Source of the DNA: Styela clava
Lineage: Eukaryota
Assembly (NCBI RefSeq): GCF_964204865.1
Contig: NC_135251.1
Span: 17,546,001-17,610,000, forward strand
Length of the DNA: 64,000 nucleotides
Direction: 5' to 3'
The translations under genes were made by a program, and so were the position numbers. Shown one piece after another: positions 22,356-47,099 of the stretch. The notes beneath the pieces were generated by a model. It did no database searches. It had not been told where the DNA came from and saw only the letters and a program-made list of their open reading frames with translations. Numbering within the stretch: the first letter of the stretch is position 1; every line of letters begins with the position of its first letter.

Positions 22356-23886
22356 CTATAAACCATATAATGAAATTTAGGAGTGAATCTAAGCGTATCT
22401 CGAATGCAAAAACCTTCTTGTATTTGTATTTTCACTATTACACAAAAATCACGCAATCGAAGCATATTATGAGCTTGATGGCACAGAAACAAGGGTTCTG
22501 TTAGGCATACGTCTAAAACAACAAGAGAGGACGAAATTCGACAATACCGAAAAACTATAAAAAATGTATTTTTTATTCGAGTTAACGGCATGGCCGTACT
22601 TTATAAATCTTTATCGACCTTCAAGTGTTAGATATTTGAAAAAACTTTTCGAGTTCACGCGCAATAAATGTACGGGGAAAAAGGAGCCGACAAGCGAAAA
22701 GTTGATTTATTATCGCTGAAAAGCGGTTTAAAGCAACACCAAAATGCTTTACTTAGTCCAATTACAAATATCAAAAACTAACTGTTTGTTTGAATCTTTC
22801 TTATTTCTAAAAAATGTCAAATATTACTGACCAATTACGTGGGACAGCATCAAAGATTCCATTCGATAATAAAAAAATGTGGAAATGACACTAAAGGTTT
22901 CGCTATAGAGGGAAAATAAACTCCCATGCTTGTATATATTAGGACCGTGGGTGTCGCTGTTGGATAACCAGTATTGGTTCGCTGCGACTTTCTTCCCCAC
23001 TAAAACTGTGTAATTATCATTTCTAGTAATTTGTACTCGAGTGATTCGTCTATATTGTATTTCTTCTTGAAACCATTTATTTTTCACATTCGTCATATTC
23101 CACTAAATTAAACTCCAATTCGTGGTATAATGTGTGACCCCAGGCAAAACTGTAATGTAATTCGGAACCCCAGAAGGCATTTGTGTTGAAAATGGCTGCC
23201 CTGGAGTAATGGCACAATTTGCTACATTGCGGCTTTCGTATTTTGCGCACTATCGTTGCATATTACCATTTTGTTTAATTCCTAAACTGCCTGGGTGTTT
23301 TTGTCAAATTTGTGACACCAAAAAACGAATAACGTACACTGATATCTCTGGATTGACCGTTCGATCAACGTTGGAATCAGAATTTATTATCAAAGATATT
23401 TATGTTTTCAAATTTGTATCCTTGTTGGCGACTTTTTGACTATATCCACCGGGACCTCTACCAATTTTATACACGACCTAACACAAGTCAAACGCGTTTT
23501 ATTGAAAAAACTAATGCGTTACGCTTATATTTACGAAATTCAAATTTAACACATGATGAAAATAATACAATACTTAAATGCTCATGCACACGGATACGAA
23601 AGTTAATTGGCACCATTTTTTTCGTACGTTAGCAACATCTGAAGCAGTCTACAAAATTTGAAAACTTATCAAAATAAACAACATATTTTATCTACTGTAC
23701 TGATAACAATTGCTGCAAAACTAAACATTTGAAACGCGATTCAGTAGTGAAAATGAGAAAACTAATCGATTTAGTGTTTGATATTGAGCCAAAAGTTGGC
23801 TTTATCTTTCAGTAAAATTTTGTAAATCCTGTAAAGGCTTTTCTCGGTCGTTTGTAAGCCTATTCAATGTCGAATAGCATGGATTC

Positions 23887-26477
23887 TTAGAACATGTCGT
23901 GACATTCGCCTCGAATTACTTCCATTCTCATGCATGGGTGATTATTCCATGATAATGGGTACAAACGAATAAGGCGACAAATCAGAGGTTTGGGAAACAT
24001 GTTAATCACTTTAGAATCCTCATCCGTGTTTCCTACAAAGACCTAAAGTAAAAAAACACATCATTTTGCAAAACACGACAAACGTTATTGTTATGATACC
24101 AATATCAAAAAGATTATAAGGGGAATAGAAATTGATAAATAGAAATGAATAATACAAATTTTGTTGTAATTTCCAGTTTCATCCTGCTTGTATACTTGGG
24201 AACCTGCGAATGAATTATTAGTATAGGATAGGATTTACATATTTATTTCTGGGGAGAGGAAAGCCGATACGGTGGCTTAATCATATGAAAAACCGCGGTC
24301 TCTCGTTCGGTTATCAGACCATGTCAGGTACGGGATTGTTAGCCAGTTATTCTTTTCAGATGCATGGAATTGATAGTGGTGAAAGCCGTAACCGACCAGG
24401 GGTTAAGTTAATCACTCTACGACAGAGAGGAGTCCCGCAATCATCTTACACATAGCTATTCTCGCATGGGATTCGAAACTGCGAACCCACGCAAGGTAAT
24501 CAGAGATGCGGTGGCGGGCGTATTTCTATATACCAATGTTTTTTGTTTAGTTGTTTAATTTCTATAGTGGGGTTACGGGCGATCACTGTAATAGCTTGTT
24601 ATACCGTAGTGATTGCGTGTAGCCAGATTGGTTTTTACCAAATAGAAGCAGCAGATTTTTTTGAATACAATAGCCCTTCATCGTATTATTTTGTTTTTCA
24701 TCCCTCGTGTACGATTATATAAAAGAAAATTGTGCGATACATACTTTGTCGACAGAATTATCCGTTATAGTTCTCAGAGTAGAAGTTGAATTCCCACACG
24801 CTACTTTGTATGTTTTTACCCACTGATTGTGATCCCATCCATATTTAATTGGGCGTCCCTGAGTTACTATTCCACCTATAAATCTCGGACGTTGAAAATC
24901 AACCTGAATCCACGGATGATTTGCTGAAAAATAATACTTTATAAATTTATTAGGATTTTTTTGAAAACTGTATACATGTTTTTACGTGTTTAACGCGAAT
25001 ATTTGCCACCGGATGTTGTTGGACTTGTCAAAATTATCGTTTATTTTTATTTATTTTTTTATTTACCTGATTCAGAGGTTATAATCAAAAAGAGATAGAG
25101 AACCGTTGATTGAGTATACAATTTTACATTCAAATAATGGGACATCGTACTCTTACTAATAATTTAAGTTAGAAAGGGCATGCAATGGTACTCATTTAAA
25201 AAACCTGGAGGGCCTAATTGGAAAGTAAAAAAACTGCAAAGATACAATGGATTATCAAGTGGAATTCAACACAGAAATACTTACTATCGTGTGTGGGGCA
25301 CCAAGCACCTATACTAAATCCAGTTGAAGCTGTATAGAAAACAGCATTTTCATCCATTCGTCCATGATGAGCGGCATGTCGGTAATCATAATCAGATGAT
25401 GCAGTAATCGCATGATCTGGAATATCCCTGTTCTTCATTCCCAATCCACAGTATGATACTGCAATGAATATGAAAGGATTTTCCATTTTATAAATAAGTA
25501 CTTCGATTATGTTCTACTGATCATCTGAGTATTTTCACGGAGTATTAGTTTCCATCGAATTGATCAATTGCAAACAACAATCGTCGCTTCGATCGAACTG
25601 TTGTATTCGATAACTGACTATAGTACTGCATATTTTGAAAATGGCGAATATGAAATATTATATATACGAATAATATAATTTATTTGCTTGACCCCTCTAC
25701 AAATAAGCTCACGACCGACTATGGCTTATATAGAATAGACCATAAGTCATTAACTATTTTCTCATTTCAGTTCCTTTCCTGGGTAAAATGAAATGTAAAA
25801 AATATATTGAATTGTAAATATCTTACGTTTTGGAATAATGTCAACGGTTTTCTTCATTTTTTCTAAAGTATAAATGCAAGAAGAAGAGCTCAATTATCTT
25901 TATTTTCCTATACGTATGTTGTATAATTAATGTTTTAATTTATTCAAATAAACTTCGTTGATAAACACTGTTTTATTATCTACTGGACCTGGTCTAGTAA
26001 AAATTCATTGCCAATTAAAAAACTCGTTCGTTTTTCCAAAATGGTATTTATTCTGTAAATATAAGTTCTGGACAAGTAATAAGCTTGGGTTTCACGCGAT
26101 TCCATAGCGAGCCGTCCGAAATAATCTAAAATGTGATTCATGACGTCAACGTGTCTCGTTTCCAGTTGGCTATATTTAGGACGTAGGAAATGAAATTTCT
26201 ATGCAAAAAATTTACCTTCTAACAATCTTATTTTATCTTCCAGGCTTTCCGTTGTCCCCTCTTGGCCTCTGTCACCTTTTACACCAGGCAGACCCCTCCT
26301 ACCCTCTGGCCCTCGCTTTCCAGGCCTTCCCTGGCACTGATCAGCACAGCTATGACTCGATGCAGTTTTGTCAGTCATTAGAGCAGAACAAAACTCGTAT
26401 ACGTTCGGTATGTCACCTAAAACTGCAGGTATGATCACGACACAGCACCATAATACGACAAAAGATTTATGCGGCAT
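23887..26477 (-). CDS. Secreted collagen-neck-discoidin (F5/8 type C) protein, copy A1, 268 aa
   Basis: Exons 26477-26216, 25862-25827, 25458-25285, 24923-24745, 24042-23887; all GT-AG, 807 nt. Signal peptide, (GXY)9, heptad neck, and discoidin motifs CGLGM..IPD..ITASS, AWC, WIQVDF..GIVTQG, QWVKTYKV, FVGNTD, RLYPLSW..CMRMEV..C. Confidence 0.92.
24223..24522 (-). mobile_element. tRNA-derived SINE in intron 4 of gene A (also in A2 and A3; partial in T, B and C copies)
   Basis: On the - strand there is a B-box-like TTCGAATCC and an (ATCCT)n tail. B-type introns keep the head, with A-box-like TGGCGCAACGTG and GGTACGAATCC (e.g. ~55920-56005). Confidence 0.65.
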
Positions 26478-26619
26478 ATCTATTTTATTTAATATTAACC
26501 GCAATAAAAAAAAGTATATTGTAGAAAATTTGGGCAAATATTTTCATCTTTGAAAAGCTTCCATATGTCCTGATAAATGTAATTTAAAATTGAAATGAAC
26601 ATATCGTTATACGGTTATA

Positions 26620-26980
26620 CCCTCTGTTCAATATGTCAAACATTGTAGTTAACGGCTTTGTTGTATCTTAACTTCCAAACTATTATTTTGCATCATTCCG
26701 AATTTACAAATACTACTCCATGACTAGATGCCGCTAATGTTTTTTTGACTTTGCCATCTTATATATATATATAAATATTAGGTCATCAGGGAAATAACGT
26801 TATATTTCACATTTTTTTCAAATTGAAATGACAATGGTTTTAATGTGTGAATTGAATGAGCTTCAGTATTTTCTCGTGGGAAACTTACATAGCGCTGATT
26901 TTCCTAACCACATCGTATGATTAGATATTATGTTAAAGGCATTTACCGAGCCACTAATAATCCAATAGGTTGGTGGTGAT
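26620..26980 (-). promoter_or_regulatory. Putative promoter and non-coding first exon of gene A1 (repeated upstream of every copy)
   Basis: (TA)n TATA-like box at ~26760-26774; CGTGGGAA at 26875-26882; AACCACA at 26906-26912; CCAAT at ~26962; candidate 5'-UTR donor GG|gtataa at 26620. Confidence 0.5.
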
Positions 26981-27499
26981 TGATTTGATATTTTAAATCA
27001 GTGCTTACGCTAATAAATGTAATTTGTTGAAATCCAAGTAAGACTGGTTACAAACACTCATTTAGTTCAATACCCAAGCACCGCTTATTTTGTGTTTCAG
27101 GGAGGCGAATACTGTGCGTGCGGGAAAGACGATATGTCTGGGCGCATGCTTGACCAAGCTTATTTTTACGAAAAAGTTCACAAGTTTCGTCGCTAATAAT
27201 TATAAGAAACAAACGGGCCGACACGGATGCCTTGACCAATGAACGATCCGTCAACGCAAACTACGATGAACCCGGCATAGGTGATTATATTCGCGGCACT
27301 CCCAGAGAATCGTAGTCTTCTCTCATTGGGCAGTGATAGACCTCCCTTGGGACACACAATAAGACAAAAGTGACCCAATGAGTGCGTTGACGCTTAAGTT
27401 GAGAAACATATAAAATTTTTGCAAATTCCAACTAAACGGTTAAGTACTTATAGGCCTTGAATCTAAAATTCAGTGTAAACTAAGTTCGGTTCAAAGTGG

Positions 27500-28669
27500 T
27501 AGGCCTATTGCAAGGATGGCATTCGATGGAGAAATTTCTAACAATCAGTCGATCGCAAGATATTAAGAAAATGTTAATCGATCTCGGCGATCCGCTGCGC
27601 ATATCCATATATTGTAAACTGTAGTAGTTTTTAGGATAAAAGCTTTGGAATCGTGTGGTAATTGTCACAGCTCAAAAAAGCAACAGAAAGTCATAGCTAT
27701 TTAAAGATGAGAATCACTCAAAAAAATTCAGAAACCCGAAAATCTGCATGCGTGCTTTTTCCGTTCGGCATTCTTTTTTTCGATAAATATTACTATCCAA
27801 ATAAAAGGTTATGAATATTTCTTTGTTTAAACCAGAAAACTGTAAAGAACAGTATAATATTCCTGAGTTCACCTTGACACCCATGAATTTGTTGCGACGC
27901 TGCAGGTGGCTACGAGACGCACAACAAAGTAGGGACCGCAGTGATCTTTACCGGGTGAGGCACAGCAGGATTTTGAGCCTGGTGCGAAGTTCGCAAGGAC
28001 ATTCTCATTGTAATATAAATTCATTTTTTTTGAAGCATTGATCAACTGCAGAGGCATTGATATAATGAACCCAATGAAAATTTTACTTTACAGTCCAGAT
28101 TTATAAAAGAATCATTGTCACAATTCATTCTTGGGCTCTCTTGATAACGTTTACCCATCGATAAGTATACGAGCATTTAAACTGTTGTCCGAATTTTCAA
28201 CCAGTTACTTCTAGCTTCAATTAAAACGAAACAAATAAATCGACTGTGAGCCGCTGCGGAGCTTTGTGTTGCAAAACCTTTTTTAGATGCCTCGTTTGCA
28301 GTCCTGTATTGAAAACGACACAGTAGCAAAATTCTCCCTGGAGTTATATGATTTGACATCTGCATGTTTTTATGTGAGATGTGTACCTTTTTTACGCATA
28401 ATGCGTGCCCAGCACTGCATCTTATTACGGAAATATAAGTTATTAATTTATATTCCACCCATTTCAATTTTTGTCGGCACATTATTTGATAGTTTTTCCT
28501 CATGCGAAATGTTTTTAGGGGGTGCCTTTTTTTTCTAAAGGCATAGTGATTGCTCGACATTACGCAAATATATGTTATTATTTTCTTTTCCACTAATTTC
28601 AGTTTTTGCCGGTCCGCAAAGACATTTTATTTTACCGGTCCGCCAGGGTAGAAAGGTTGGGAACCACTG
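27500..28669. mobile_element. Truncated hAT (Charlie-like) element, right end only; copies at +12,261, +24,522 and ~58.8-60.0 kb
   Basis: Terminus GGTTGGGAACCACTG followed by TTCTAGAG, a typical Charlie-type target; subterminal CCGGTCCGC repeats. No matching left TIR was found and the left boundary is approximate. Confidence 0.6.
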
Positions 28670-29162
28670 TTCTAGAGACATATCGGTGGATTGACCGCTC
28701 AACCAATCTCAATGTTGGAATCAGAAGTTATTATCAAAGATTATTATGCTTTTCATTTATTTTTTCCCTTTTATGTATTTTGTTGGCGGCTTTTTGATTA
28801 TCTCTACTTTGGATCTCTATCAATTTCATACACGATCTAACACAAGTTGAACGAGTTTTATTGAAAATCATTAATGCGTAATGCCTACTTATGAAATTTA
28901 TAAGTGTTATGAAGAACAACAACAAGAAGCAACATCTGAAGCAGTCTACAAAATTTGAAAACTTTGAAAAAAAGAAACAACATATTTTATGATTGCTGAT
29001 AAAACTGAAAATTTGAAACGCGGTTCAATAGTGAAAAGAAAAACAACTAGTCGATTTAGTGTTTGATAATGAGCCAAAAGTTAGCTCAATATTTCAGTAA
29101 AATTCTGAAAAGGCGTTCCTAGGTCGGTTGTAAGCCTATTCAAAGTCGAATAGCATGGATTC

Positions 29163-30051
29163 TTAGAACAAGTCGTGACATTCGCCTCGAATTACTTCCA
29201 TTCTCATGCATTGGTGATATTTCCATGATAATGGGTACAAACAAACAAAGCGACAAATCAGAGGTTTGGGAAACATGTTAATCACTTTAGAATTCTCATC
29301 CGTGTTTCCTGAAAAGACCTATAGTAAAACATAAATAAAAATATTATTTTACAAAATACGACAAACATTATTGTTATACTTTCGATATAAAAAAGCACAA
29401 AAGAAATAGATGAATAGGAAAATAACTGAAAAGTTTATTGTAATTTCCAGATTAATCTTGCTTATATACTTGGAACCTTACGAAGGAAATATTAAGATAG
29501 GATTTGCATATTTAACCCGGGGAGAGGTAAACTGATAAGACGGCTTAATCATATGTCGAACCCCGGCCTCGAGTACGGCTACCAGTCCGCGTCGGGAATG
29601 AAATTAGTTGGCCAGTTATTTGTTTCCGGTTTATAGACTTGTTAGTGGAGAAAGCCGTAACCGACCGGCGCTTACGTGAACCACCCTATACGGCAGCGAA
29701 AAGTTTAGCAATTTTCTCGCACATTTGATACGAATATGCGAACCCACGAATTAGTAACTAATATAGGTAATAATGAATAGCTAATATATTTATATATATA
29801 ATAGTTCTTCATCGTATTACTTTTTTTATCCCTAGTGTGCGTTTATATACAAGAATATTGTACGATACATACTTTGTCAATAGCATTATCCGTTATAGTT
29901 CTCAGAGTAGAAGTTGAATTCCCACACGCTATTTTGCATGTTTTTACCCACTGATTGAAGTCCCATACGTATTTAATTGGGCGTCCCTGTGTTACTATTC
30001 CACCTATAAATCTCGGGCGTTGAAAATCAACCTGAATCCACTGATCATTTG
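29163..30051 (-). pseudogene. Orphan discoidin exons 4-5 (cassette T1)
   Basis: Exons 30051-29873 and 29318-29163 have open frames and intact splice sites. Intron 3 jumps at ~30395 into intron-1 sequence and then into gene B's 3' flank; exons 1-3 are absent. Confidence 0.8.
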
Positions 30052-31167
30052 CTGATAAATATTAATTCGCAAATTCAGTATGATTTTCCTTTTTTTGAAA
30101 CTGTATCAAATTTTTACGTGTTTAACGCAAAATAGTTTCCTCCGGATATTATTGAAGTTGTTATAGTAATCGCTGGCTTTTATAAAATATTTACCTGATT
30201 TGATGGTTATACTCAGAAAAAGATAGATAATCTGTTGGTTCATTACAATTTTTACATGCAAATAATGATACGTCGTACTCCTATTAAAAAATATAGTGCA
30301 TGGAAGGGGCATGGCAAAGGTACTCGCTATATATATATGGAGGGCCTCGTTTAAAAAATAAAACAAAAATGTTGAGATACATCGATTGGAAGTGATCGTT
30401 TTGCAAATTGTTGGACTGAGAGTCATTACTTGAGGAATTATAGGGACCCCAGGAGGCATTTGTGTTAAAAATGGCTGCCCTGGAGTAATGACACAATTCT
30501 CTACATTGCAGCTTTCGTATTTTGCGCACTATCGTTGCATATTACCATTTTATTTAATTCCTAAACTGCCTGGGTGTTTTTGTCAAATTTGTGACACCGA
30601 AAAAACGAATAACATACACTGATATCTCTGGATTGACCGTTCGATCAACGTTGGAATCAGAATTTATTATCAAAGATATTTATGTTTTCAAATTTGTATC
30701 CTTGTTGGCGACTTTTTGACTATATCCACCGGGACCTCTACCAATTTTATACACGACCTAACACAAGTTAAACGAGTTTTATTAAAAAAACTAATGCGTT
30801 ACGCTTATATTTACGAAATTCAAGTTTTAACACATGATGAAAATAGTACAATACTTAAATGCTCATGCACACGAATACGGAAGTTAATTGGCACCATTTT
30901 TTTCGTACGTTAGCAACATCTGAAGCAGTCTACAAAATTTGAAAACTTATCAAAATAAACAACATATTTTATCTACTGTACTGATAACAATTGCTGCAAA
31001 ACTAAACATTTGAAACGCGATTCAGTAGTGAAAATGAGAAAACTAATCGATTTAGTGTTTGATATTGAGCCAAAAGTTGGCTTAATCTTTCAGTAAAATT
31101 GTGTAAATCCTGTGAAGGCTTTTCTAGATCGTCTGTAAGCCTATTCGAAGTCGAATAGCATAGATTC

Positions 31168-33331
31168 TTAGAACATGTCGTGACATTCGCCTCGAATTAC
31201 TTCCATTCTCATGCATATGCCAATATTCCAGGACATTGGATATAAACGAACAAAACGACAAGACAGAGGTTTGGGGAACATGTTAATCACTTTAGAATCC
31301 TCATCCGTGTTTCCTACAAAAACCTAAAGGAAAAACAACATCATTTTACAAAAGAGACGAGAAATTCAGTAATCCCCTCGCACATAATTATCTCACGTGG
31401 GATTCGTACCCACGCAGATAATCAGAGGTGCGGTGGCGAACGTACTCGTAAAGCATAGCACGTTGCGCCACAAATCTAAATCGTAAGAAAATTTCAAAAG
31501 CAACTAATTTCAATACGAATGTTTGCTGTTCAGTTATTTAATTTCCATAGCGGTGTTACGGGCACCATTGAAATGGCATGGTCTGTCGCTGTCAATGTGT
31601 GTAGCTAGATTGGTTTTTACCAGTGAAGTAGTATATTTATTCAAATATAATACCCCTTTTTCGTATTGCTGTTTGTTTTTCATCCTTTGTCTACAATCAT
31701 ATAAAAGAAAATTATACGATACATACTTTGTCGATCTCATTATCCGTTATAGTTCTCAGAGTAGAAGTTGAATTCCCACACGCTACTTTGTATGTTTTTA
31801 CCCGCTGATTGTAGTTCCATCTGTATTTAATTGGGCGGCCCTGAGTTACTATTCCACCTATAAATCTCGGACGTTGAAAATCAATCTGAATCCACTCACC
31901 ATTTGCTGATAAATATTAATTCGCAAATTTAGTATGAGTTTTATATTTTTTAGAAACTGTTAAAATATTTTTACGTTTAATCGTTTACTTTTCAAAATGT
32001 CTACCTGATTGGAAGATTAGAAAAAGGTGAAGAATCGACTGTTAATTCATTACAATTTTACATGGGAATAATAGTACATCGTGCTCCTTAGAAGTGGCAT
32101 GCTATGGGGCTCGTTTAAAAAATATAGAGGGCTTCGTTTGAAATATAAAACGAAATGTTAGGATCCACTTGATGTTAAGATATATCAAGTGAAAGTGAAC
32201 ACAAAAATACCTACTGTTTTGTCCGGAGCACCAGGCACCTACACTAAATCCAGATGAAGCTGTATGGAAAACAGCATTTTCATTCATTCGTCCATGATGA
32301 GCGGCATGTCGGTAATCAGAAACAGATGATGCAGTAATCACATGATCTGGAATATCCCTGCTCTTCATTCCCATTCCACAGTAGGATACTGCAATGGATA
32401 TAAAAGAAATTTTCTATTTATAAATAAGTGCTTCGATTATATTCTACTGATCATCTGATTATTTTTATGGTATGGATATAGAACAAATTTTATTTACCTG
32501 ATTATTTAATTTCGTAGGCCAATAGTCATTATTTTTCTATTTCAGTACCTATCCAGAGTAAAATGAAATGTAAAAAAATACATTGAATTTTAAATTACTT
32601 ACGTTTTGGAATAATGTCAACGGTTTTCTTCATTTTTTCTGAAGTAAAAATCAAGAAGATGCGCTCAGATTATCCTTAATTTCCTTTTTGTATTTTGTAG
32701 AATTAAACAGTTTTAATTTATTCAAATAAATTCTAATAAAATTCCTTGTGTCTCACTGTTTTATTATCCACTGGACACGGCCCAGAAAAAATTAATTGCC
32801 GTTTCAGGAACTTGTTTTACGAATTGTCGGACCGAAAGTCACTGCTCGATGAATTATATCAAAACAATTCATTTTTCATAAAATGTATTCATTCTGTGCA
32901 ATATAAGTTCTGAAAATGTAATATGCTTGGGTTTCACGCAATTCCATATCAAACCCGTCCAAAATAATTCAAAATGTAATGTCCAAAATGTAAATGTAAT
33001 GTCTCAGTTCCAGTTGGCTATATTTAGGGCGTAAAAAATGAATGTTAAATGCATAACAAAAAAGCTTACCTTCTAACAATCTTATTTTCTCCTCCAAGCG
33101 TTCCGTTGTCCCCTCTTCGCCTCTGTCACCTTTTACACCAGGCAGACCCCTCCTACCCTCTGGCCCCCGCTTTCCGGGCCTTCCCTGGCACTGAGCAGCA
33201 CAGTTATGACTCGATGCAGTTTTGTCAGTCATTAGAGCAGAACAAAACTCGTATACGTTCGGTATGTCACTTAAAACTGCAGGTATGATTACGACACAGC
33301 ACCATAATACGACGAAAGATTTATGCGGCAT
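31168..33331 (-). CDS. Secreted collagen-neck-discoidin protein, copy B1, 268 aa
   Basis: Exons 33331-33070, 32638-32603, 32388-32215, 31905-31727, 31323-31168; open frame. Carries a W>R change in the QWV motif. Confidence 0.88.
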
Positions 33332-34031
33332 ATCTATTTTATTCAATATTAATTGCAATTAAAAAAAGTATATTGTAGAAAATTTGGGCAAATATTTTCA
33401 TCTTTGAAAGGCTTCCATATGTCCTGATAAATGTAATTTAAAATTGAAATGAACATATCGTTATACCCTCTGTTTAATATCAAACATTGTAGTTAACGGC
33501 TTTGTTGTATCTTAACTTCCAAACTATTGTTTAGCATCATCCCGAATTTACAAATACCACTCCATGACTAGACGCCGCTAATGTTGTTTTGACCTTGCCA
33601 TCTTATATATATAGAGAGAGAGAGAAATATTAGGTCATCAGGGTACTAACGTTATATTTCACATTTTAGTTTTTCGAAACTGAAATGGAAGTTCAAAAAA
33701 TGCCGAGACAATGGTTTTAATGTGTAAATTGAACGAGCTTCAGTATTTTCTCGTGGGAAACTTACATTGCGCTGTTTTTCCCAACCACATCGCCTGATCG
33801 TAAAGAGATTATATTTTGAAAACATTTACCAAACCACTAAGCCAATAAAGCTTGGTGGTGACTAATTGATATTTTAAATCAGTGCTAACGCTAATAAATG
33901 TAATTTGTTGAGATCCAAGTGAGACTGGTTACAAATACTCATTTATTTCAGTATCCAAGCACCGCTTATTTTGAGTCCCTATGCTTACTCTAATCTGGAA
34001 AGAAGTATTCATCAATATCACCTATATGTAT

Positions 34032-34838
34032 CAGAGTTGGATCAATTGTAATTTGTAATTGTAATTGATGTAATTAATTACAGTTTTTCATGTAATTGTA
34101 ATGTAATCGAGGCATTTTCATTCTGTGTAATTGTAAATGTAATTGTAATTTGCTAAAATTTCGGCTCAATTACACTTTCAAGTACACCAGGGGTCACCAA
34201 ACTAGGGCGTCCTTTCATCTGGCAAATAACACGAAAAAGGGCGAAATATTTTTCCAAGGGGCGTTTCCGAGAATCGCCTTCCTTTTTTTTATTTCGTAAC
34301 ATTAGCCAATCAGCAAGATGCGAAAAAGAGACGTAACAATATGCCTTTTCGCATCCGTTAAGACACTCGGACAGATTTTCAGTCGTGGTTGTAAACATTA
34401 CCTCATTTTGCGATTTCGAATGCTATTCGTTAGATTTTAGTTGTGTTTCGGAAATTTAAGTTTGAATCAAATAAGTGAATCCTCATATTGCCTTCTTAGG
34501 AGTTATAGTTTAATTATAAGTAGTTATCAAAATTAGTCTAGAAATAGCTGTGATAAAATAGGCTAAATCCATGGGAACACTGGCTGTCTGGTTTGATTCT
34601 GTAAATTCTTGCTACGCGAAACTCGGAAATTTTTTGAGGGTAGCGGTAGCATCAAGGGTAAACTGCTTCGCTCTGTGTAACGTGTCCATATATTTGAGCA
34701 TTGCTCTGTTGTAATTGTAAATGTAATGTAATTGTATTTTGATACTTTTTGCACGGAGTAATTGTAATGTAATTGAAATATTTAAGGAAGTAATTGCAAT
34801 TGTAATTGAACTGAATTAATGTAATTGATCCAACTCTG
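34032..34838. mobile_element. hAT-type MITE (807 bp) with TGTAAT subterminal arrays
   Basis: Perfect 16-bp TIR CAGAGTTGGATCAATT; perfect 8-bp TSD ATATGTAT; a second, internal hAT-like end CAGGGGTCACCAAACT at 34188. Confidence 0.9.
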
Positions 34839-34932
34839 ATATGTATCATTTTTTCTTTTGCCTGGAAGGTTTGATAGTTAGACAGTTTGAATGCAAATTA
34901 TATTCAAATTTGTCATTTTTTAAAGAATAAAT

Positions 34933-35815
34933 AATTTAGAATTAAAATGAACATATCGGTATACCCACTGTTCAATGTGTCAAACATTGAAGTTAACGAC
35001 TTTGTTCGTCTGTATCTTAATTTCCCAACTAACATTTTGCATCATCCCGATTTTACAAATACTACTCCTATAACTAGACGCCGCTAATGTTTTTTTGACT
35101 TTGCCATCTTATATGTATATATATAAATATTCGGTCATCAGGGAACTAACGTTATATTTCACATTTTTTTTTAAATTGAAATGGAAGTTCAAAAAATGCC
35201 GAGACAATGGTTTTAATGTGTGAATTGAACGAGCTTCAGTATTTTCTCGTGGGAAACTTACATTGCGCTGATTTTCCTAACCACATCGTACGATTAGATA
35301 ATATGTTAAAGGCCATTACCGAGCCACTAATAATCCAATAGGTTGGTGGTGATTGATTTGATATTTTAAATCAGTGCTAACGCTAATAAATGTAATTTGT
35401 TGAGATTCAAGTGAGCCTGGTTACAAATACTCATTTAGTTAAATATCCAAGAAGCTCTTATTTTGTGCTCCAAGGAGGCGAATACTATGCGTGCGGGAAA
35501 GACGATATGTCTGGGCGCATGCTTGACCAAGCTTATTTTTACATAACAGTTTACAAGTTCCGTCACTAATAATTATAATAAACATGTAACTACGATGAAA
35601 CCCATAGGTAATTATATTCACGGCACTCCTAGAGAATCGTAGTCCACTTCATTGGAAAGATAGCCTTCCTTTGGCTATGTCACAATAAGACAAACGTAAC
35701 CCAATGAGTGACGTCTAAAGTTGAGAAGCATATAAAACTTTTCAAATTCCAAATAAACGGTGTAGTTAGTGAAGTTATCAAGGTTAGTGTAGTAAACTAA
35801 GTTCGAGTCAAAGTG
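34933..35815 (-). promoter_or_regulatory. Orphan duplicate of the cluster promoter and 5'-UTR exon (also ~47194-48076)
   Basis: Colinear with 26590-27500 and most similar to the copy-C promoter (~63010-63175). No coding exon 1 follows it directly. Confidence 0.7.
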
Positions 35816-36146
35816 GGAAAGACAGAAATGCTCATGCACACGAATACGAAAGTCAATTGTCACCATTTTCCTCGTACTTTTAGCAACATCTGAAGTAGTA
35901 TAATTATACAGATTGAAAAAATTTACAAAATTAAACATTATATTCTATCTACTGTAATGATTCTGATTGCTGCTGAAACTGAAAATTTAAAACGCGGATC
36001 AACAGTGAAAAAGAGAAGCAACTGGTCGATTTAATGTTTGATAATGAGTCAAAAGTTGGCTTTATCTTTCAGTAAAATTTTGTAAATCCTGTAAAGGCTT
36101 TTCTCGGTCGTTTGTAAGCCTATTCAATGTCGAATAGCATGGATTC

Positions 36147-38738
36147 TTAGAACATGTCGTGACATTCGCCTCGAATTACTTCCATTCTCATGCATGGGTG
36201 ATTATTCCATGATAATGGGTACAAACGAATAAGGCGACAAATCAGAGGTTTGGGAAACATGTTAATCACTTTAGAATCCTCATCCGTGTTTCCTACAAAG
36301 ACCTAAAGTAAAAAAACACATTATTTTGCAAAACACGACAAACGTTATTGTTATGATATCAATATCAAAAAGATTATAATGGGAATAGAAATTGATAAAT
36401 AGAAATGAATAATACAAATTTTGTTGTAATTTCCAGTTTCATCCTGCTTGTATACTTGGGACCCTGCGAATGAATTATTAGTATAGGATAGGATTTACAT
36501 ATTTATTTCTGGGGAGAGGAAAGCCGATACGGTGGCTTAATCATATGAAAAACCGCGGTCTCTCGTTCAGTTATCAGACCATGTCAGGTACGGGATTGTT
36601 AGCCAGAAATTTGTTTCAGATGCATGGAATTGATAGTGGTGAAAGCCGTAACCGACCAGGGGTTAAGTTAATCACTCTACGACAGAGAGGAGTCCCGCAA
36701 TCATCTTACACATAGCTATTCTCGCATGGGATTCGAAACTGCGAACCCACGCAAGGTAATCAGAGATGCGGTGGCGGGCGTATTTCTATATACCAATGTT
36801 TTTTGTTTAGTTGTTTAATTTCTATAGTGGGGTTACGGGCGATCACTGTGATAGCTTGTTATACCGTAGTGATTGCGTGTAGCCAGATTGGTTTTTACCA
36901 AATAGAAGCAGCAGATTTTTTTGAATACAATAGCCCTTCATCGTATTATTTTGTTTTTCATCCCTCGTGTACGATTATATAAAAGAAAATTGTGCGATAC
37001 ATACTTTGTCGACAGAATTATCCGTTATAGTTCTCAGAGTAGAAGTTGAATTCCCACACGCTACTTTGTATGTTTTTACCCACTGATTGTGGTCCCATCC
37101 ATATTTAATTGGGCGTCCCTGAGTTACTATTCCACCTATAAATCTCGGACGTTGAAAATCAACCTGAATCCACGGATGATTTGCTGAAAAATAATACTTT
37201 ATAAATTTATTAGGATTTTTTTGAAAACTGTATACATGTTTTTACGTGTTTAACGCGAAATAATTGCCACCGGATGTTGTTGGACTTGTCAAAATTATCG
37301 TTTATTTTTATTTTATTTTTTATTTACCTGATTCAGAGGTTATAATCAAAAAGAGATAGAGAACCGTTGATTAAGTATACAATTTTACATTCAAATAAGG
37401 GGACATCGTACTCTTACTAATAATTTAAGTTAGAAAGGGCATGCAATGGTACTCATTTAAAAAACCTGGAGGGCCTAATTGGAAAGTAAAAGAACTGCAA
37501 AGATACAATGGATTATCAAGTGGAATTCAACACGGAAATACTTACTATCGTGTGTGGGGCACCAAGCACCTATACTAAATCCAGTTGAAGCTGTATGGAA
37601 AACAGCATTTTCATCCATTCGTTCATGATGAGCGGCATGTCGGTAATCATAATCAGATGATGCAGTAATCGCATGATCTGGAATATCCCTGTTCTTCATT
37701 CCCAATCCACAGTATGATACTGCAATGAATATGAAAGGATTTTCCATTTTATAAATAAGTACTTCGATTATGTTCTACTGATCATCTGAGTATTTTCACG
37801 GAGTATTAGTTTCCATCGAATTGATCAATTGCAAACAACAATCGTCGCTTCGATCGAACTGTTGTATTCGATAACTGACTATAGTACTGCATATTTTGAA
37901 AATGGCGAATATGAAATATTATATATACGAATAATATAATTTATTTGCTTGACCCCTCTACAAATAAGCTCACGACCGACTATGGCTTATATAGAATAGA
38001 CCATAAGTCATTAACTATTTTCTCATTTCAGTTCCTTTCCTGGGTAAAATGAAATGTAAAAAATATATTGAATTGTAAATATCTTACGTTTTGGAATAAT
38101 GTCAACGGTTTTCTTCATTTTTTCTAAAGTATAAATGCAAGAAGAAGAGCTCAATTATCTTTATTTTCCTATACGTATGTTGTATAATTAATGTTTTAAT
38201 TTATTCAAATAAACTTCGTTGATAAACACTGTTTTATTATCTACTGGACCTGGTCTAGTAAAAATTCATTGCCAATTAAAAAACTCGTTCGTTTTTCCAA
38301 AATGGTATTTATTCTGTAAATATAAGTTCTGGACAAGTAATAAGCTTGGGTTTCACGCGATTCCATAGCGAGCCGTCCGAAATAATCTAAAATGTGATTC
38401 ATGACGTCAACGTGTCTCGTTTCCAGTTGGCTATATTTAGGACGTAGGAAATGAAATTTCTATGCAAAAAATTTACCTTCTAACAATCTTATTTTATCTT
38501 CCAGGCTTTCCGTTGTCCCCTCTTGGCCTCTGTCACCTTTTACACCAGGCAGACCCCTCCTACCCTCTGGCCCTCGCTTTCCAGGCCTTCCCTGGCACTG
38601 ATCAGCACAGCTATGACTCGATGCAGTTTTGTCAGTCATTAGAGCAGAACAAAACTCGTATACGTTCGGTATGTCACCTAAAACTGCAGGTATGATCACG
38701 ACACAGCACCATAATACGACAAAAGATTTATGCGGCAT
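36147..38738 (-). CDS. Collagen-neck-discoidin protein, copy A2
   Basis: Exons 38738-38477, 38123-38088, 37719-37546, 37183-37005, 36302-36147. Differs from A1 by Y>H and G>E in exon 3. Confidence 0.9.
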
Positions 38739-41423
38739 ATCTATTTTATTTAATATTAACCGCAATAAAAAAAAGTATATTGTAGAAAATTTGGGCAAAT
38801 ATTTTCATCTTTGAAAAGCTTCCATATGTCCTGATAAATGTAATTTAAAATTGAAATGAACATATCGTTATACGGTTATACCCTCTGTTCAATATGTCAA
38901 ACATTGTAGTTAACGGCTTTGTTGTATCTTAACTTCCAAACTATTATTTTGCATCATTCCGAATTTACAAATACTACTCCATGACTAGATGCCGCTAATG
39001 TTTTTTTGACTTTGCCATCTTATATATATATATAAATATTAGGTCATCAGGGAAATAACGTTATATTTCACATTTTTTTCAAATTGAAATGACAATGGTT
39101 TTAATGTGTGAATTGAATGAGCTTCAGTATTTTCTCGTGGGAAACTTACATAGCGCTGATTTTCCTAACCACATCGTATGATTAGATATTATGTTAAAGG
39201 CATTTACCGAGCCACTAATAATCCAATAGGTTGGTGGTGATTGATTTGATATTTTAAATCAGTGCTTACGCTAATAAATGTAATTTGTTGAAATCCAAGT
39301 AAGACTGGTTACAAACACTCATTTAGTTCAATACCCAAGCACCGCTTATTTTGTGTTTCAGGGAGGCGAATACTGTGCGTGCGGGAAAGACGATATGTCT
39401 GGGCGCATGCTTGACCAAGCTTATTTTTACGAAAAAGTTCACAAGTTTCGTCGCTAATAATTATAAGAAACAAACGGGCCGACACGGATGCCTTGACCAA
39501 TGAACGATCCGTCAACGCAAACTACGATGAACCCGGCATAGGTGATTATATTCGCGGCACTCCCAGAGAATCGTAGTCTTCTCTCATTGGGCAGTGATAG
39601 ACCTCCCTTGGGACACACAATAAGACAAAAGTGACCCAATGAGTGCGTTGACGCTTAAGTTGAGAAACATATAAAATTTTTGCAAATTCCAACTAAACGG
39701 TTAAGTACTTATAGGCCTTGAATCTAAAATTCAGTGTAAACTAAGTTCGGTTCAAAGTGGTAGGCCTATTGCAAGGATGGCATTCGATGGAGAAATTTCT
39801 AACAATCAGTCGATCGCAAGATATTAAGAAAATGTTAATCGATCTCGGCGATCCGCTGCGCATATCCATATATTGTAAACTGTAGTAGTTTTTAGGATAA
39901 AAGCTTTGGAATCGTGTGGTAATTGTCACAGCTCAAAAAAGCAACAGAAAGTCATAGCTATTTAAAGATGAGAATCACTCAAAAAAATTCAGAAACCCGA
40001 AAATCTGCATGCGTGCTTTTTCCGTTCGGCATTCTTTTTTTCGATAAATATTACTATCCAAATAAAAGGTTATGAATATTTCTTTGTTTAAACCAGAAAA
40101 CTGTAAAGAACAGTATAATATTCCTGAGTTCACCTTGACACCCATGAATTTGTTGCGACGCTGCAGGTGGCTACGAGACGCACAACAAAGTAGGGACCGC
40201 AGTGATCTTTACCGGGTGAGGCACAGCAGGATTTTGAGCCTGGTGCGAAGTTCGCAAGGACATTCTCATTGTAATATAAATTCATTTTTTTTGAAGCATT
40301 GATCAACTGCAGAGGCATTGATATAATGAACCCAATGAAAATTTTACTTTACAGTCCAGATTTATAAAAGAATCATTGTCACAATTCATTCTTGGGCTCT
40401 CTTGATAACGTTTACCCATCGATAAGTATACGAGCATTTAAACTGTTGTCCGAATTTTCAACCAGTTACTTCTAGCTTCAATTAAAACGAAACAAATAAA
40501 TCGACTGTGAGCCGCTGCGGAGCTTTGTGTTGCAAAACCTTTTTTAGATGCCTCGTTTGCAGTCCTGTATTGAAAACGACACAGTAGCAAAATTCTCCCT
40601 GGAGTTATATGATTTGACATCTGCATGTTTTTATGTGAGATGTGTACCTTTTTTACGCATAATGCGTGCCCAGCACTGCATCTTATTACGGAAATATAAG
40701 TTATTAATTTATATTCCACCCATTTCAATTTTTGTCGGCACATTATTTGATAGTTTTTCCTCATGCGAAATGTTTTTAGGGGGTGCCTTTTTTTTCTAAA
40801 GGCATAGTGATTGCTCGACATTACGCAAATATATGTTATTATTTTCTTTTCCACTAATTTCAGTTTTTGCCGGTCCGCAAAGACATTTTATTTTACCGGT
40901 CCGCCAGGGTAGAAAGGTTGGGAACCACTGTTCTAGAGACATATCGGTGGATTGACCGCTCAACCAATCTCAATGTTGGAATCAGAAGTTATTATCAAAG
41001 ATTATTATGCTTTTCATTTATTTTTTCCCTTTTATGTATTTTGTTGGCGGCTTTTTGATTATCTCTACTTTGGATCTCTATCAATTTCATACACGATCTA
41101 ACACAAGTTGAACGAGTTTTATTGAAAATCATTAATGCGTAATGCCTACTTATGAAATTTATAAGTGTTATGAAGAACAACAACAAGAAGCAACATCTGA
41201 AGCAGTCTACAAAATTTGAAAACTTTGAAAAAAAGAAACAACATATTTTATGATTGCTGATAAAACTGAAAATTTGAAACGCGGTTCAATAGTGAAAAGA
41301 AAAACAACTAGTCGATTTAGTGTTTGATAATGAGCCAAAAGTTAGCTCAATATTTCAGTAAAATTCTGAAAAGGCGTTCCTAGGTCGGTTGTAAGCCTAT
41401 TCAAAGTCGAATAGCATGGATTC

Positions 41424-42312
41424 TTAGAACAAGTCGTGACATTCGCCTCGAATTACTTCCATTCTCATGCATTGGTGATATTTCCATGATAATGGGTACA
41501 AACAAACAAAGCGACAAATCAGAGGTTTGGGAAACATGTTAATCACTTTAGAATTCTCATCCGTGTTTCCTGAAAAGACCTATAGTAAAACATAAATAAA
41601 AATATTATTTTACAAAATACGACAAACATTATTGTTATACTTTCGATATAAAAAAGCACAAAAGAAATAGATGAATAGGAAAATAACTGAAAAGTTTATT
41701 GTAATTTCCAGATTAATCTTGCTTATATACTTGGAACCTTACGAAGGAAATATTAAGATAGGATTTGCATATTTAACCCGGGGAGAGGTAAACTGATAAG
41801 ACGGCTTAATCATATGTCGAACCCCGGCCTCGAGTACGGCTACCAGTCCGCGTCGGGAATGAAATTAGTTGGCCAGTTATTTGTTTCCGGTTTATAGACT
41901 TGTTAGTGGAGAAAGCCGTAACCGACCGGCGCTTACGTGAACCACCCTATACGGCAGCGAAAAGTTTAGCAATTTTCTCGCACATTTGATACGAATATGC
42001 GAACCCACGAATTAGTAACTAATATAGGTAATAATGAATAGCTAATATATTTATATATATAATAGTTCTTCATCGTATTACTTTTTTTATCCCTAGTGTG
42101 CGTTTATATACAAGAATATTGTACGATACATACTTTGTCAATAGCATTATCCGTTATAGTTCTCAGAGTAGAAGTTGAATTCCCACACGCTATTTTGCAT
42201 GTTTTTACCCACTGATTGAAGTCCCATACGTATTTAATTGGGCGTCCCTGTGTTACTATTCCACCTATAAATCTCGGGCGTTGAAAATCAACCTGAATCC
42301 ACTGATCATTTG
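41424..42312 (-). pseudogene. Orphan discoidin exons 4-5 (cassette T2)
   Basis: Copy of T1 at +12,261. Confidence 0.8.
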
Positions 42313-43428
42313 CTGATAAATATTAATTCGCAAATTCAGTATGATTTTCCTTTTTTTGAAACTGTATCAAATTTTTACGTGTTTAACGCAAAATAGTTTC
42401 CTCCGGATATTATTGAAGTTGTTATAGTAATCGCTGGCTTTTATAAAATATTTACCTGATTTGATGGTTATACTCAGAAAAAGATAGATAATCTGTTGGT
42501 TCATTACAATTTTTACATGCAAATAATGATACGTCGTACTCCTATTAAAAAATATAGTGCATGGAAGGGGCATGGCAAAGGTACTCGCTATATATATATG
42601 GAGGGCCTCGTTTAAAAAATAAAACAAAAATGTTGAGATACATCGATTGGAAGTGATCGTTTTGCAAATTGTTGGACTGAGAGTCATTACTTGAGGAATT
42701 ATAGGGACCCCAGGAGGCATTTGTGTTAAAAATGGCTGCCCTGGAGTAATGACACAATTCTCTACATTGCAGCTTTCGTATTTTGCGCACTATCGTTGCA
42801 TATTACCATTTTATTTAATTCCTAAACTGCCTGGGTGTTTTTGTCAAATTTGTGACACCGAAAAAACGAATAACATACACTGATATCTCTGGATTGACCG
42901 TTCGATCAACGTTGGAATCAGAATTTATTATCAAAGATATTTATGTTTTCAAATTTGTATCCTTGTTGGCGACTTTTTGACTATATCCACCGGGACCTCT
43001 ACCAATTTTATACACGACCTAACACAAGTTAAACGAGTTTTATTAAAAAAACTAATGCGTTACGCTTATATTTACGAAATTCAAGTTTTAACACATGATG
43101 AAAATAGTACAATACTTAAATGCTCATGCACACGAATACGGAAGTTAATTGGCACCATTTTTTTCGTACGTTAGCAACATCTGAAGCAGTCTACAAAATT
43201 TGAAAACTTATCAAAATAAACAACATATTTTATCTACTGTACTGATAACAATTGCTGCAAAACTAAACATTTGAAACGCGATTCAGTAGTGAAAATGAGA
43301 AAACTAATCGATTTAGTGTTTGATATTGAGCCAAAAGTTGGCTTAATCTTTCAGTAAAATTGTGTAAATCCTGTGAAGGCTTTTCTAGATCGTCTGTAAG
43401 CCTATTCGAAGTCGAATAGCATAGATTC

Positions 43429-45592
43429 TTAGAACATGTCGTGACATTCGCCTCGAATTACTTCCATTCTCATGCATATGCCAATATTCCAGGACATTGG
43501 ATATAAACGAACAAAACGACAAGACAGAGGTTTGGGGAACATGTTAATCACTTTAGAATCCTCATCCGTGTTTCCTACAAAAACCTAAAGGAAAAACAAC
43601 ATCATTTTACAAAAGAGACGAGAAATTCAGTAATCCCCTCGCACATAATTATCTCACGTGGGATTCGTACCCACGCAGATAATCAGAGGTGCGGTGGCGA
43701 ACGTACTCGTAAAGCATAGCACGTTGCGCCACAAATCTAAATCGTAAGAAAATTTCAAAAGCAACTAATTTCAATACGAATGTTTGCTGTTCAGTTATTT
43801 AATTTCCATAGCGGTGTTACGGGCACCATTGAAATGGCATGGTCTGTCGCTGTCAATGTGTGTAGCTAGATTGGTTTTTACCAGTGAAGTAGTATATTTA
43901 TTCAAATATAATACCCCTTTTTCGTATTGCTGTTTGTTTTTCATCCTTTGTCTACAATCATATAAAAGAAAATTATACGATACATACTTTGTCGATCTCA
44001 TTATCCGTTATAGTTCTCAGAGTAGAAGTTGAATTCCCACACGCTACTTTGTATGTTTTTACCCGCTGATTGTAGTTCCATCTGTATTTAATTCGGCGTC
44101 CCTGAGTTACTATTCCACCTATAAATCTCGGACGTTGAAAATCAATCTGAATCCACTCACCATTTGCTGATAAATATTAATTCGCAAATTTAGTATGAGT
44201 TTTATATTTTTTAGAAACTGTTAAAATATTTTTACGTTTAATCGTTTACTTTTCAAAATGTCTACCTGATTGGAAGATTAGAAAAAGGTGAAGAATCGAC
44301 TGTTAATTCATTACAATTTTACATGGGAATAATAGTACATCGTGCTCCTTAGAAGTGGCATGCTATGGGGCTCGTTTAAAAAATATAGAGGGCTTCGTTT
44401 GAAATATAAAACGAAATGTTAGGATCCACTTGATGTTAAGATATATCAAGTGAAAGTGAACACAAAAATACCTACTGTTTTGTCCGGAGCACCAGGCACC
44501 TACACTAAATCCAGATGAAGCTGTATGGAAAACAGCATTTTCATTCATTCGTCCATGATGAGCGGCATGTCGGTAATCAGAAACAGATGATGCAGTAATC
44601 ACATGATCTGGAATATCCCTGCTCTTCATTCCCATTCCACAGTAGGATACTGCAATGGATATAAAAGAAATTTTCTATTTATAAATAAGTGCTTCGATTA
44701 TATTCTACTGATCATCTGATTATTTTTATGGTATGGATATAGAACAAATTTTATTTACCTGATTATTTAATTTCGTAGGCCAATAGTCATTATTTTTCTA
44801 TTTCAGTACCTATCCAGAGTAAAATGAAATGTAAAAAAATACATTGAATTTTAAATTACTTACGTTTTGGAATAATGTCAACGGTTTTCTTCATTTTTTC
44901 TGAAGTAAAAATCAAGAAGATGCGCTCAGATTATCCTTAATTTCCTTTTTGTATTTTGTAGAATTAAACAGTTTTAATTTATTCAAATAAATTCTAATAA
45001 AATTCCTTGTGTCTCACTGTTTTATTATCCACTGGACACGGCCCAGAAAAAATTAATTGCCGTTTCAGGAACTTGTTTTACGAATTGTCGGACCGAAAGT
45101 CACTGCTCGATGAATTATATCAAAACAATTCATTTTTCATAAAATGTATTCATTCTGTGCAATATAAGTTCTGAAAATGTAATATGCTTGGGTTTCACGC
45201 AATTCCATATCAAACCCGTCCAAAATAATTCAAAATGTAATGTCCAAAATGTAAATGTAATGTCTCAGTTCCAGTTGGCTATATTTAGGGCGTAAAAAAT
45301 GAATGTTAAATGCATAACAAAAAAGCTTACCTTCTAACAATCTTATTTTCTCCTCCAAGCGTTCCGTTGTCCCCTCTTCGCCTCTGTCACCTTTTACACC
45401 AGGCAGACCCCTCCTACCCTCTGGCCCCCGCTTTCCGGGCCTTCCCTGGCACTGAGCAGCACAGTTATGACTCGATGCAGTTTTGTCAGTCATTAGAGCA
45501 GAACAAAACTCGTATACGTTCGGTATGTCACTTAAAACTGCAGGTATGATTACGACACAGCACCATAATACGACGAAAGATTTATGCGGCAT
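43429..45592 (-). CDS. Collagen-neck-discoidin protein, copy B2
   Basis: Copy of B1 at +12,261; exon 4 reads QGRRIK rather than QGRPIK. Confidence 0.88.
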
Positions 45593-46292
45593 ATCTATTT
45601 TATTCAATATTAATTGCAATTAAAAAAAGTATATTGTAGAAAATTTGGGCAAATATTTTCATCTTTGAAAGGCTTCCATATGTCCTGATAAATGTAATTT
45701 AAAATTGAAATGAACATATCGTTATACCCTCTGTTTAATATCAAACATTGTAGTTAACGGCTTTGTTGTATCTTAACTTCCAAACTATTGTTTAGCATCA
45801 TCCCGAATTTACAAATACCACTCCATGACTAGACGCCGCTAATGTTGTTTTGACCTTGCCATCTTATATATATAGAGAGAGAGAGAAATATTAGGTCATC
45901 AGGGTACTAACGTTATATTTCACATTTTAGTTTTTCGAAACTGAAATGGAAGTTCAAAAAATGCCGAGACAATGGTTTTAATGTGTAAATTGAACGAGCT
46001 TCAGTATTTTCTCGTGGGAAACTTACATTGCGCTGTTTTTCCCAACCACATCGCCTGATCGTAAAGAGATTATATTTTGAAAACATTTACCAAACCACTA
46101 AGCCAATAAAGCTTGGTGGTGACTAATTGATATTTTAAATCAGTGCTAACGCTAATAAATGTAATTTGTTGAGATCCAAGTGAGACTGGTTACAAATACT
46201 CATTTATTTCAGTATCCAAGCACCGCTTATTTTGAGTCCCTATGCTTACTCTAATCTGGAAAGAAGTATTCATCAATATCACCTATATGTAT

Positions 46293-47099
46293 CAGAGTTG
46301 GATCAATTGTAATTTGTAATTGTAATTGATGTAATTAATTACAGTTTTTCATGTAATTGTAATGTAATCGAGGCATTTTCATTCTGTGTAATTGTAAATG
46401 TAATTGTAATTTGCTAAAATTTCGGCTCAATTACACTTTCAAGTACACCAGGGGTCACCAAACTAGGGCGTCCTTTCATCTGGCAAATAACACGAAAAAG
46501 GGCGAAATATTTTTCCAAGGGGCGTTTCCGAGAATCGCCTTCCTTTTTTTTATTTCGTAACATTAGCCAATCAGCAAGATGCGAAAAAGAGACGTAACAA
46601 TATGCCTTTTCGCATCCGTTAAGACACTCGGACAGATTTTCAGTCGTGGTTGTAAACATTACCTCATTTTGCGATTTCGAATGCTATTCGTTAGATTTTA
46701 GTTGTGTTTCGGAAATTTAAGTTTGAATCAAATAAGTGAATCCTCATATTGCCTTCTTAGGAGTTATAGTTTAATTATAAGTAGTTATCAAAATTAGTCT
46801 AGAAATAGCTGTGATAAAATAGGCTAAATCCATGGGAACACTGGCTGTCTGGTTTGATTCTGTAAATTCTTGCTACGCGAAACTCGGAAATTTTTTGAGG
46901 GTAGCGGTAGCATCAAGGGTAAACTGCTTCGCTCTGTGTAACGTGTCCATATATTTGAGCATTGCTCTGTTGTAATTGTAAATGTAATGTAATTGTATTT
47001 TGATACTTTTTGCACGGAGTAATTGTAATGTAATTGAAATATTTAAGGAAGTAATTGCAATTGTAATTGAACTGAATTAATGTAATTGATCCAACTCTG
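46293..47099. mobile_element. hAT-type MITE, duplicate of 34032-34838
   Basis: Same TIR and TSD; duplicated as part of the 12,261-bp unit. Confidence 0.9.

Follow-up and report, generated by a model that had tools for sequence, protein, structure and literature searches.

A conserved lysine at the start of a short collagen stalk is a candidate MASP-docking site in a Styela clava family with F5/8 type C heads

Can a secreted ascidian protein with a discoidin-type head dock a MASP through its collagen stalk, as mammalian MBL and ficolins do? The question is raised by a 64,000-nucleotide stretch of Styela clava DNA (contig NC_135251.1, positions 17,546,001 to 17,610,000; hereafter the window), for which an initial annotation reported a motif of the MASP-binding type, P-G-K-x-G-P, in the short collagen stalk of the gene that we call A1 (Table 1). 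Our reading confirms the motif at that place: the minus strand translates there as GRPGKRGP, which forms triplets 1–3 of the stalk, and the Gly-X-Y register puts Pro in Y and Lys in X, matching the mammalian motif. Like the other intact genes of the window, A1 has five exons and GT-AG introns. Its 268-residue product consists of a hydrophobic signal-peptide-like start, three cysteines (C30, C44 and C48), the collagen, a predicted neck helix and one F5/8 type C domain; Pfam recognized Collagen and F5/8 type C only, the latter (PF00754) with an E value of 1.1e-24. RefSeq lists an additional isoform of 256 residues. A monomer model had a pLDDT below 50 over residues 30–65 and is uninformative about the stalk. 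Splicing was read from 4 of 13 listed runs at 90% likeness, a setting in which close paralogues may contribute and RNA status was guessed: all four introns were joined in contigs of two RNA-like runs and three of the four in a third (three studies), against none of the four in a DNA-like run. A single RNA-like contig covers exons 1–5, and exon 1 is uncovered in the RNA-like run X9. Intron 4 of gene A contains a high-copy interspersed repeat (24210–24530), marked in each of the four runs by very high depth and numerous loose ends.

The motif occurs seven times in the window, every time on the minus strand. Its invariance in gene types A, B and B3 and in a fragment at 232–444, to which the initial annotation had drawn attention, is real but near trivial, since copies of the 12,261-bp unit that holds the six intact genes are 98.5–99.3% identical. 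The 24-mer that encodes GRPGKRGP has two DNA versions among these six genes, and the stalks of types A and B differ at 5 of 80 residues, so that any eight residues would be identical with a probability of about 0.6. Because the seven copies are recent duplicates, invariance inside the window is weak evidence. The caveat that the motif can occur by chance is true of the window copies taken alone. Among 1,262 triplets in the long collagens of this genome, Lys stands in X in 63 (5%), P-G-K occurs 14 times (1.1%), P-G-K-x-G-P twice and PGKRG never; at these rates the chance of finding a single P-G-K in a nine-triplet stalk is about 9%, and that of finding P-G-K-x-G-P about 1%. The signal above chance is conservation across distant paralogues and across other head types. 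Two damaged copies share a breakpoint. In copy D, exon 1 ends after 99 nt; 212 bp of exon 1 and intron 1 are gone from nt 99 of the coding sequence, a deletion that appears as joint 26169–26382 in the DNA-like run X10, and the 164-residue models P0012 and P0014 belong to this copy. The isolated fragment 444–232 begins at nt 99 as well, and we found no further exons of the gene near it in the window.

Table 1. Positions of the motif, of gene A1 and of its paralogues in the window
Feature	Position	Strand	Remarks
GRPGKRGP	26307..26330	-	residues 50-57 of gene A1; Lys54 (X position), candidate MASP-docking residue
Gene A1, coding exon 1	26216..26477	-	signal-peptide-like start, Cys region, collagen, neck start; phase-1 donor
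Collagen stalk, 9 Gly-X-Y triplets	26250..26330	-	Pfam Collagen E 4.5e-5, under curated cut-off
Gene A1, exon 2 (36 nt), neck helix	25827..25862	-	RefSeq protein, splice joints, model helix 76-93
Gene A1, exon 3, start of F5/8 type C head	25285..25458	-	splice joints, Pfam domain
Gene A1, exon 4, F5/8 type C head	24745..24923	-	PF00754 E 3.5e-8; splice joints
Gene A1, exon 5, head end and stop	23887..24042	-	PF00754 E 4e-7; splice joints
12,261-bp tandem unit (gene A, 3'-half remnant, gene B), ~2.8 copies	23576..57957	.	
3'-half remnants	29163-30051, 41424-42312, 53685-54574		
Gene B1, intact paralogue	31168..33331	-	motif 33184-33161
Gene A2	36147..38738	-	identical to XP_077976090.1 (P0001); motif 38591-38568
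Gene B2	43429..45592	-	motif 45445-45422
Gene A3	48408..50999	-	motif 50852-50829
Gene B3	55693..57866	-	identical to XP_077966304.1 (P0002); motif 57722-57699
Seventh copy D	60558..62892	-	collagen, motif and splice donor deleted; head exons intact
Isolated exon-1 fragment	232..444	-	motif 395-372 (broken fragment); ~50-nt insertion with stops

A genome search with exon 1 gave at least 94 matches (150 of 202 candidates scored) and one with a head exon gave 70, mostly at the same places; the family comprises some 50 secreted proteins that bear a discoidin-type head on a short collagen stalk. The X position of the anchor triplet is Lys in 45 of 50 distinct stalks of the F5/8C type, a count that comes from a search biased towards the motif and from an anchor rule that favours Lys in five rows; at later X positions Lys is found in 3 of 328. 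This count excludes identical copies (L002, L003, L005 and L012 with Lys, L041–L043 with Glu), two Lys rows removed by an upstream-stop filter (L044 and L098), the broken Glu copy L062, and L045, in which the site itself is broken; with all of these but L045 added, Lys stands in 51 of 60. Fourteen further loci were found via the head alone: six have a stalk, every one with Lys, and eight showed no collagen run in the sequence stretch examined. Across the 50 stalks Pro precedes the lysine in 47, Arg follows it in 40 and the final Pro is kept in 27. Thus P-G-K-x-G-P is present in A1, whereas the core that the family conserves is P-G-K-(R)-G. Lys is followed by R, K, I, T or M and never by an acidic residue. 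At the motif, Lys is encoded by either of its codons (29 AAA, 16 AAG) and Arg by five, so the constraint acts on the protein. In 24 full-length proteins (32–87% identical to the first), residues 50–56 are 95% conserved, and the corresponding figures are 59% in the remaining collagen and 55% in the head; R51 and R55 score 0.96 and K54 0.92, its two substitutions both being Arg.

Departures from Lys are confined to a contig-4 subfamily that reads G-S-P-G-E-I-G and to L047, L016 and L049. The Glu subfamily, in which the stalk is two triplets shorter, comprises L039–L043, L045 and L048 (contigs 3 and 4); we suggest regarding it as a natural negative control or a decoy. Its broken copy L040 reads P-G-K-I-G-P, the canonical mammalian-type motif. 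Outside Styela, we found two proteins of collagen–F5/8C architecture in Clavelina lepadiformis, one with P-G-R-R-G and the other with S-G-K-R-G followed later by F-G-K-H-G, and one further protein retains R-P-G-K-R-G. The conservation of the lysine, proposed earlier as a check on the docking idea, is thus strong within the species and partial beyond it, with Lys in one of the two Clavelina proteins. On this thin sample the architecture appears to span two ascidian lineages; the family's own protein cluster in the Atlas, the sole cluster obtained, has 59 members, all Chordata. Paralogues at 32–50% identity on many contigs keep the motif with synonymous variation, and it recurs under three head types. 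A chance collagen sequence retained by recent duplication, which would suffice for the seven window copies and is made easier by the frequency of P-G-K in long collagens, is largely refuted by these comparisons, and we consider it highly improbable. We conclude that the motif is real and under selection in a large family of proteins that resemble defence collagens.

The same lysine is found on stalks with other heads. Among the weaker exon-1 matches, all seven stalks with fibrinogen heads read V-G-K-A/T-G-P, and all three with C-type lectin heads read P-G-K-A-G-P or P-G-K-R-G-A. A motif-blind Pfam Collagen search gave at least 133 matches (150 of 708 candidates scored), for which 30 loci were returned and 20 more picked by eye; in the signal-adjacent stalks from this search, Lys occupies X within triplets 1–3 in 13 of 14, where 0.14 is expected for each. 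Grouped by eye, five of six families of such stalks carry the early Lys (binomial p of about 3e-4 if independent, an independence that common ancestry of the stalks may deny). Ten of the 13 early-Lys stalks have C-type lectin heads, one has a fibrinogen head and two have heads that were not identified, and several of the C-type lectin heads carry an EPN motif, which in C-type lectins is linked to mannose binding. The genome's collectins open their helix with G-R-P-G-K-R-G or G-K-K-G-P. Because the collectin and ficolin stalks here mostly show an early P-G-K-R/K-G, Arg after Lys is the local norm. The initial annotation had cautioned that mammals usually have an aliphatic residue in this place; the Styela stalks do depart from this, with Arg in 40 of 50, but the caution is weakened by the EPN-type collectins of the same genome, which share GRPGKRG. 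A DNA pattern for PGKRG had 332 matches in the genome against 213 for the reversed control. Two further types of stalk gene were noted in passing. L133, L135 and L156 (contig 3, 19.18–19.22 Mb) encode a signal peptide, 18 triplets starting from GRPGKRG and a neck; no head was located within 8 kb, and a BACK-domain fragment lies downstream. In the collectins L136/L154/L157, L162 and L169, which form small tandem groups, the collagen and much or all of the lectin domain lie in one intronless frame.

A position fixed at the very beginning of the helix, whatever the head type, would also suit an N-terminal folding or assembly signal of the short triple helix, inherited with a shuffled stalk exon and unconnected with protease docking. 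Arg in Y stabilizes the helix and is the key residue for the chaperone HSP47, which, according to passages of PMC8301893, requires Gly-X-Arg and is influenced by position -3; the same passages place GKRGA in a collagen II peptide. Such a signal accounts for the Pro and the Arg but not for the lysine in X, which is the sole residue common to all head types, and the Y residue after it varies (R, K, A, T, M or I). PGKRG is, moreover, absent from the 1,262 triplets of the long collagens, and the fourteenth signal-adjacent collagen, L159, which has no Lys and neither a C-type lectin nor a fibrinogen head, lacks the motif. We regard an assembly signal as unlikely. L159 itself (contig 9, 23.236–23.244 Mb) encodes a secreted collagen followed by cysteine-rich modules, by eye of the contactin-associated/collagen C-terminal type, for which Pfam gave no identification.

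Another reading takes R-P-G-K-R as a basic patch for heparin or sulfated polysaccharides of haemolymph, tunic or mucus, by comparison with the acetylcholinesterase collagen tail. GRPGKRG is identical to the first seven residues of the ColQ heparin-binding sequence GRPGKRGKQGQK, as given in an excerpt of PMC3539881, and heparin occurs in ascidian haemocytes according to part of PMC5465252; R51 and R55 are highly conserved, and K is replaceable by R. The lysines that follow in ColQ are, however, missing from the Styela protein, which has K-R-G-P where ColQ has K-R-G-K (a string present in none of the 50 motifs), and the next X is P, S, N, I or A. Furthermore, Lys is preferred over Arg by 45 to 1, and ficolin stalks, with G-K-A/T, have no dibasic pair. 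ColQ is also an enzyme anchor without an F5/8 type C head. A polyanion patch is in our estimation distinctly unlikely. A dibasic convertase site is expected to have Arg at P4 or P6; the K-R pair of the motif has Arg at neither, and ficolin stalks read K-A or K-T at this point, so we rejected such a site.

We then considered whether the genome offers a partner for the lysine. CUB-EGF-CUB order was found at five loci, with a protease domain read at three. One product, P0099 (XP_039250840.2, MASP-2-like in RefSeq), maps to contig 8, has CUB, EGF, CUB, Sushi and trypsin domains and retains, as E68, D82, D128, S130, N131, E254, D264, D303 and S305, the equivalents of all nine Ca2+ ligands of human MASP-1 (Glu49, Asp57, Asp102, Ser104, Asn105, Glu216, Asp226, Asp263 and Ser265). 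It is through those ligands that the collagen lysine binds MASP-1, as an excerpt of PMC5300068 states. The loops between the ligands have more acidic residues in P0099 than in the human counterparts, and this acidity would match a basic stalk. On contig 9, one gene combines a tetrabasic junction, a thioester motif, a receptor-binding domain and a C345C match of 20.9 bits against a cut-off of 21.9, and because of these four features we call it C3-like; two other thioester exons were rejected as C3, being CD109/A2M-like, and a third is A2M-like. In line with the earlier premise that ascidians have MASPs and C3, this genome contains a C3-like gene as well as MASP genes whose Ca2+/Lys site is intact, and the premise agrees with the part of PMC5465252 that lists MASPs, C3, collectins and ficolins in ascidians.

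The lysine might instead dock another CUB or receptor partner, such as a tolloid-like protease, a protease-less MASP relative or a phagocyte receptor, and serve an opsonin or matrix role without C3 cleavage. BMP-1 and mTLL-1 bind MBL via the same Lys55, according to passages of PMC5717261, and the genome has at least 150 CUB matches together with a protease-less CUB-EGF-CUB-CCP gene, P0190. Yet CUB1 of P0190 has lost several Ca2+ ligands, and for the collectin and ficolin stalks that bear this site the established partners are MASPs; we judge another partner rather unlikely. P0190 (377 residues; contig 8, 17.326–17.330 Mb, L089:9432 to L090:3581) is a separate gene within the MASP gene cluster, with an architecture that we take to be that of mammalian MAp44. 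At L087 (contig 8, 17.346–17.356 Mb), a single MASP heavy-chain region is followed by several sets of serine-protease exons, an arrangement suggestive of alternative protease domains, presumably in the manner of MASP-1/3.

We put the probability that GRPGKRGP is a MASP dock on this collagen–F5/8C protein at about one half, on the strength of sequence comparison and of analogy with mammalian defence collagens. Three chains would form a triple helix via the neck, N-terminal cysteines would link the trimers, and variable head loops would bind a target surface, perhaps anionic phospholipid (as with lactadherin and factor VIII C2) or glycan. Lys54 would contact the Ca2+-coordinating acids of MASP CUB1/CUB2, and the arginines on either side of it would pair with the CUB loops, which are unusually acidic in the ascidian MASP. 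Once activated, the MASP would cleave C3, leading to opsonization. In mammals the Lys is essential, Glu after it is not tolerated and the Pro is dispensable (PMC3179595 and passages of PMC2856262). The same passages of PMC2856262 report that moving the site by two triplets is tolerated, as is Ser after Lys, and that the site can be transplanted into SP-A. The ascidian pattern, in which the Lys is fixed, the next residue variable and non-acidic and the Pro optional, fits these rules.

The resemblance to mammalian MBL and ficolins extends to the whole layout: a secreted chain with an N-terminal Cys region, collagen, a neck and one globular head, with Pro(Y)-Gly-Lys(X), required of a MASP-binding defence collagen, in the same register and no acidic residue after the Lys. 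The Styela protein differs in its F5/8 type C head, its nine triplets, an Xaa that is mostly Arg (Arg in A1, not aliphatic or Met), a final Pro that A1 has but only about half of the family keeps, and the position of its predicted docking site in triplets 1–3 instead of mid-stalk. A defence collagen that binds MASP is expected to have its site clear of the N-terminal junction, where a MASP dimer has room, whereas this one lies two residues from Cys48; the MBL site lies beyond the collagen interruption (PMC2592599), and engineered sites sat five triplets from the kink, leaving room, in passages of PMC2856262. With the collectins and ficolins of its own genome (L052, L058-60, L136/154, L158, L160-162 and L169; L053-57, L063 and L164) it shares the layout of the first coding exon and an early G-K, often an identical GRPGKRG; their head domain is different and their MASP binding likewise putative. 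Three further points count against docking: the mammalian motif gives no reason to expect the conservation of R51 and R55, which equals that of K54; the contig-4 subfamily has Glu, and one Clavelina homologue has no Lys; and a single exon may be ancestral to the stalks of every head type, which would then not be independent. We found no ascidian collagen–MASP binding in print. According to the review PMC11312191, it is not yet clear what part the collagen ficolins and MBL of urochordates play in complement, and in amphioxus a ficolin binds MASP without collagen.

With PF00754 in this position, the head is neither the C-type lectin head of a collectin nor the fibrinogen-like head of a ficolin. 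Its closest counterparts in sequence and fold are factor VIII C2, neuropilin b1 and lactadherin C2, at about 30–34% identity and a Foldseek E value of about 1e-14; given this resemblance, sugar recognition is at most putative. The F5/8 type C fold is shared with lactadherin/MFG-E8, the factor V/VIII C domains and the neuropilin b domains, but the Styela protein has no EGF, CUB, A or peptidase domains and carries a single head on a collagen stalk; neither the EGF plus two C domains of lactadherin nor the carboxypeptidase domain of CPXM2 is present in its 268 residues. The labels 'lactadherin-like' and 'inactive carboxypeptidase-like protein X2', the latter given to this protein by RefSeq, arise because databases name from the head alone. 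Differences between the window copies concentrate in head loops (about 122–126, 154–161, 186–192 and 247–253). For A1/B1 the head has a pN/pS of 0.83 against 0.29 for the stalk, and the B1 and B3 heads differ by 13 non-synonymous changes and 1 synonymous change; these numbers, all small, suggest that the head loops evolve faster than the stalk.

To our knowledge, collagenous complement initiators have three heads only: gC1q, C-type lectin and fibrinogen-like. The literature searched, which covered few subscription papers, yielded no description of tunicate collagen–F5/8C proteins or of the motif in ascidians; the early G-K of ascidian collectins may already be on record, and the architecture is likely an undescribed type of defence collagen. 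Somewhat more tentatively than the docking itself, we propose that the family may constitute a fourth class of complement initiator in tunicates, beside C1q, collectins and ficolins, in which some 50 proteins with diversified heads would plug into the same MASP via a stalk module that exon shuffling distributed to lectin and fibrinogen heads as well, and whose ascidian version of the site, R-P-G-K-R-G where the helix begins, is matched by acidic CUB loops. The motif bears on the open point of whether ascidian collagen lectins engage MASP through their collagen. The family is large, apparently expressed and mislabelled, and, if the docking reading is true, it adds a fourth head with the same docking lysine; this would show the stalk–MASP interface to be a modular plug, with which new sensors were recombined in the sister group of the vertebrates.
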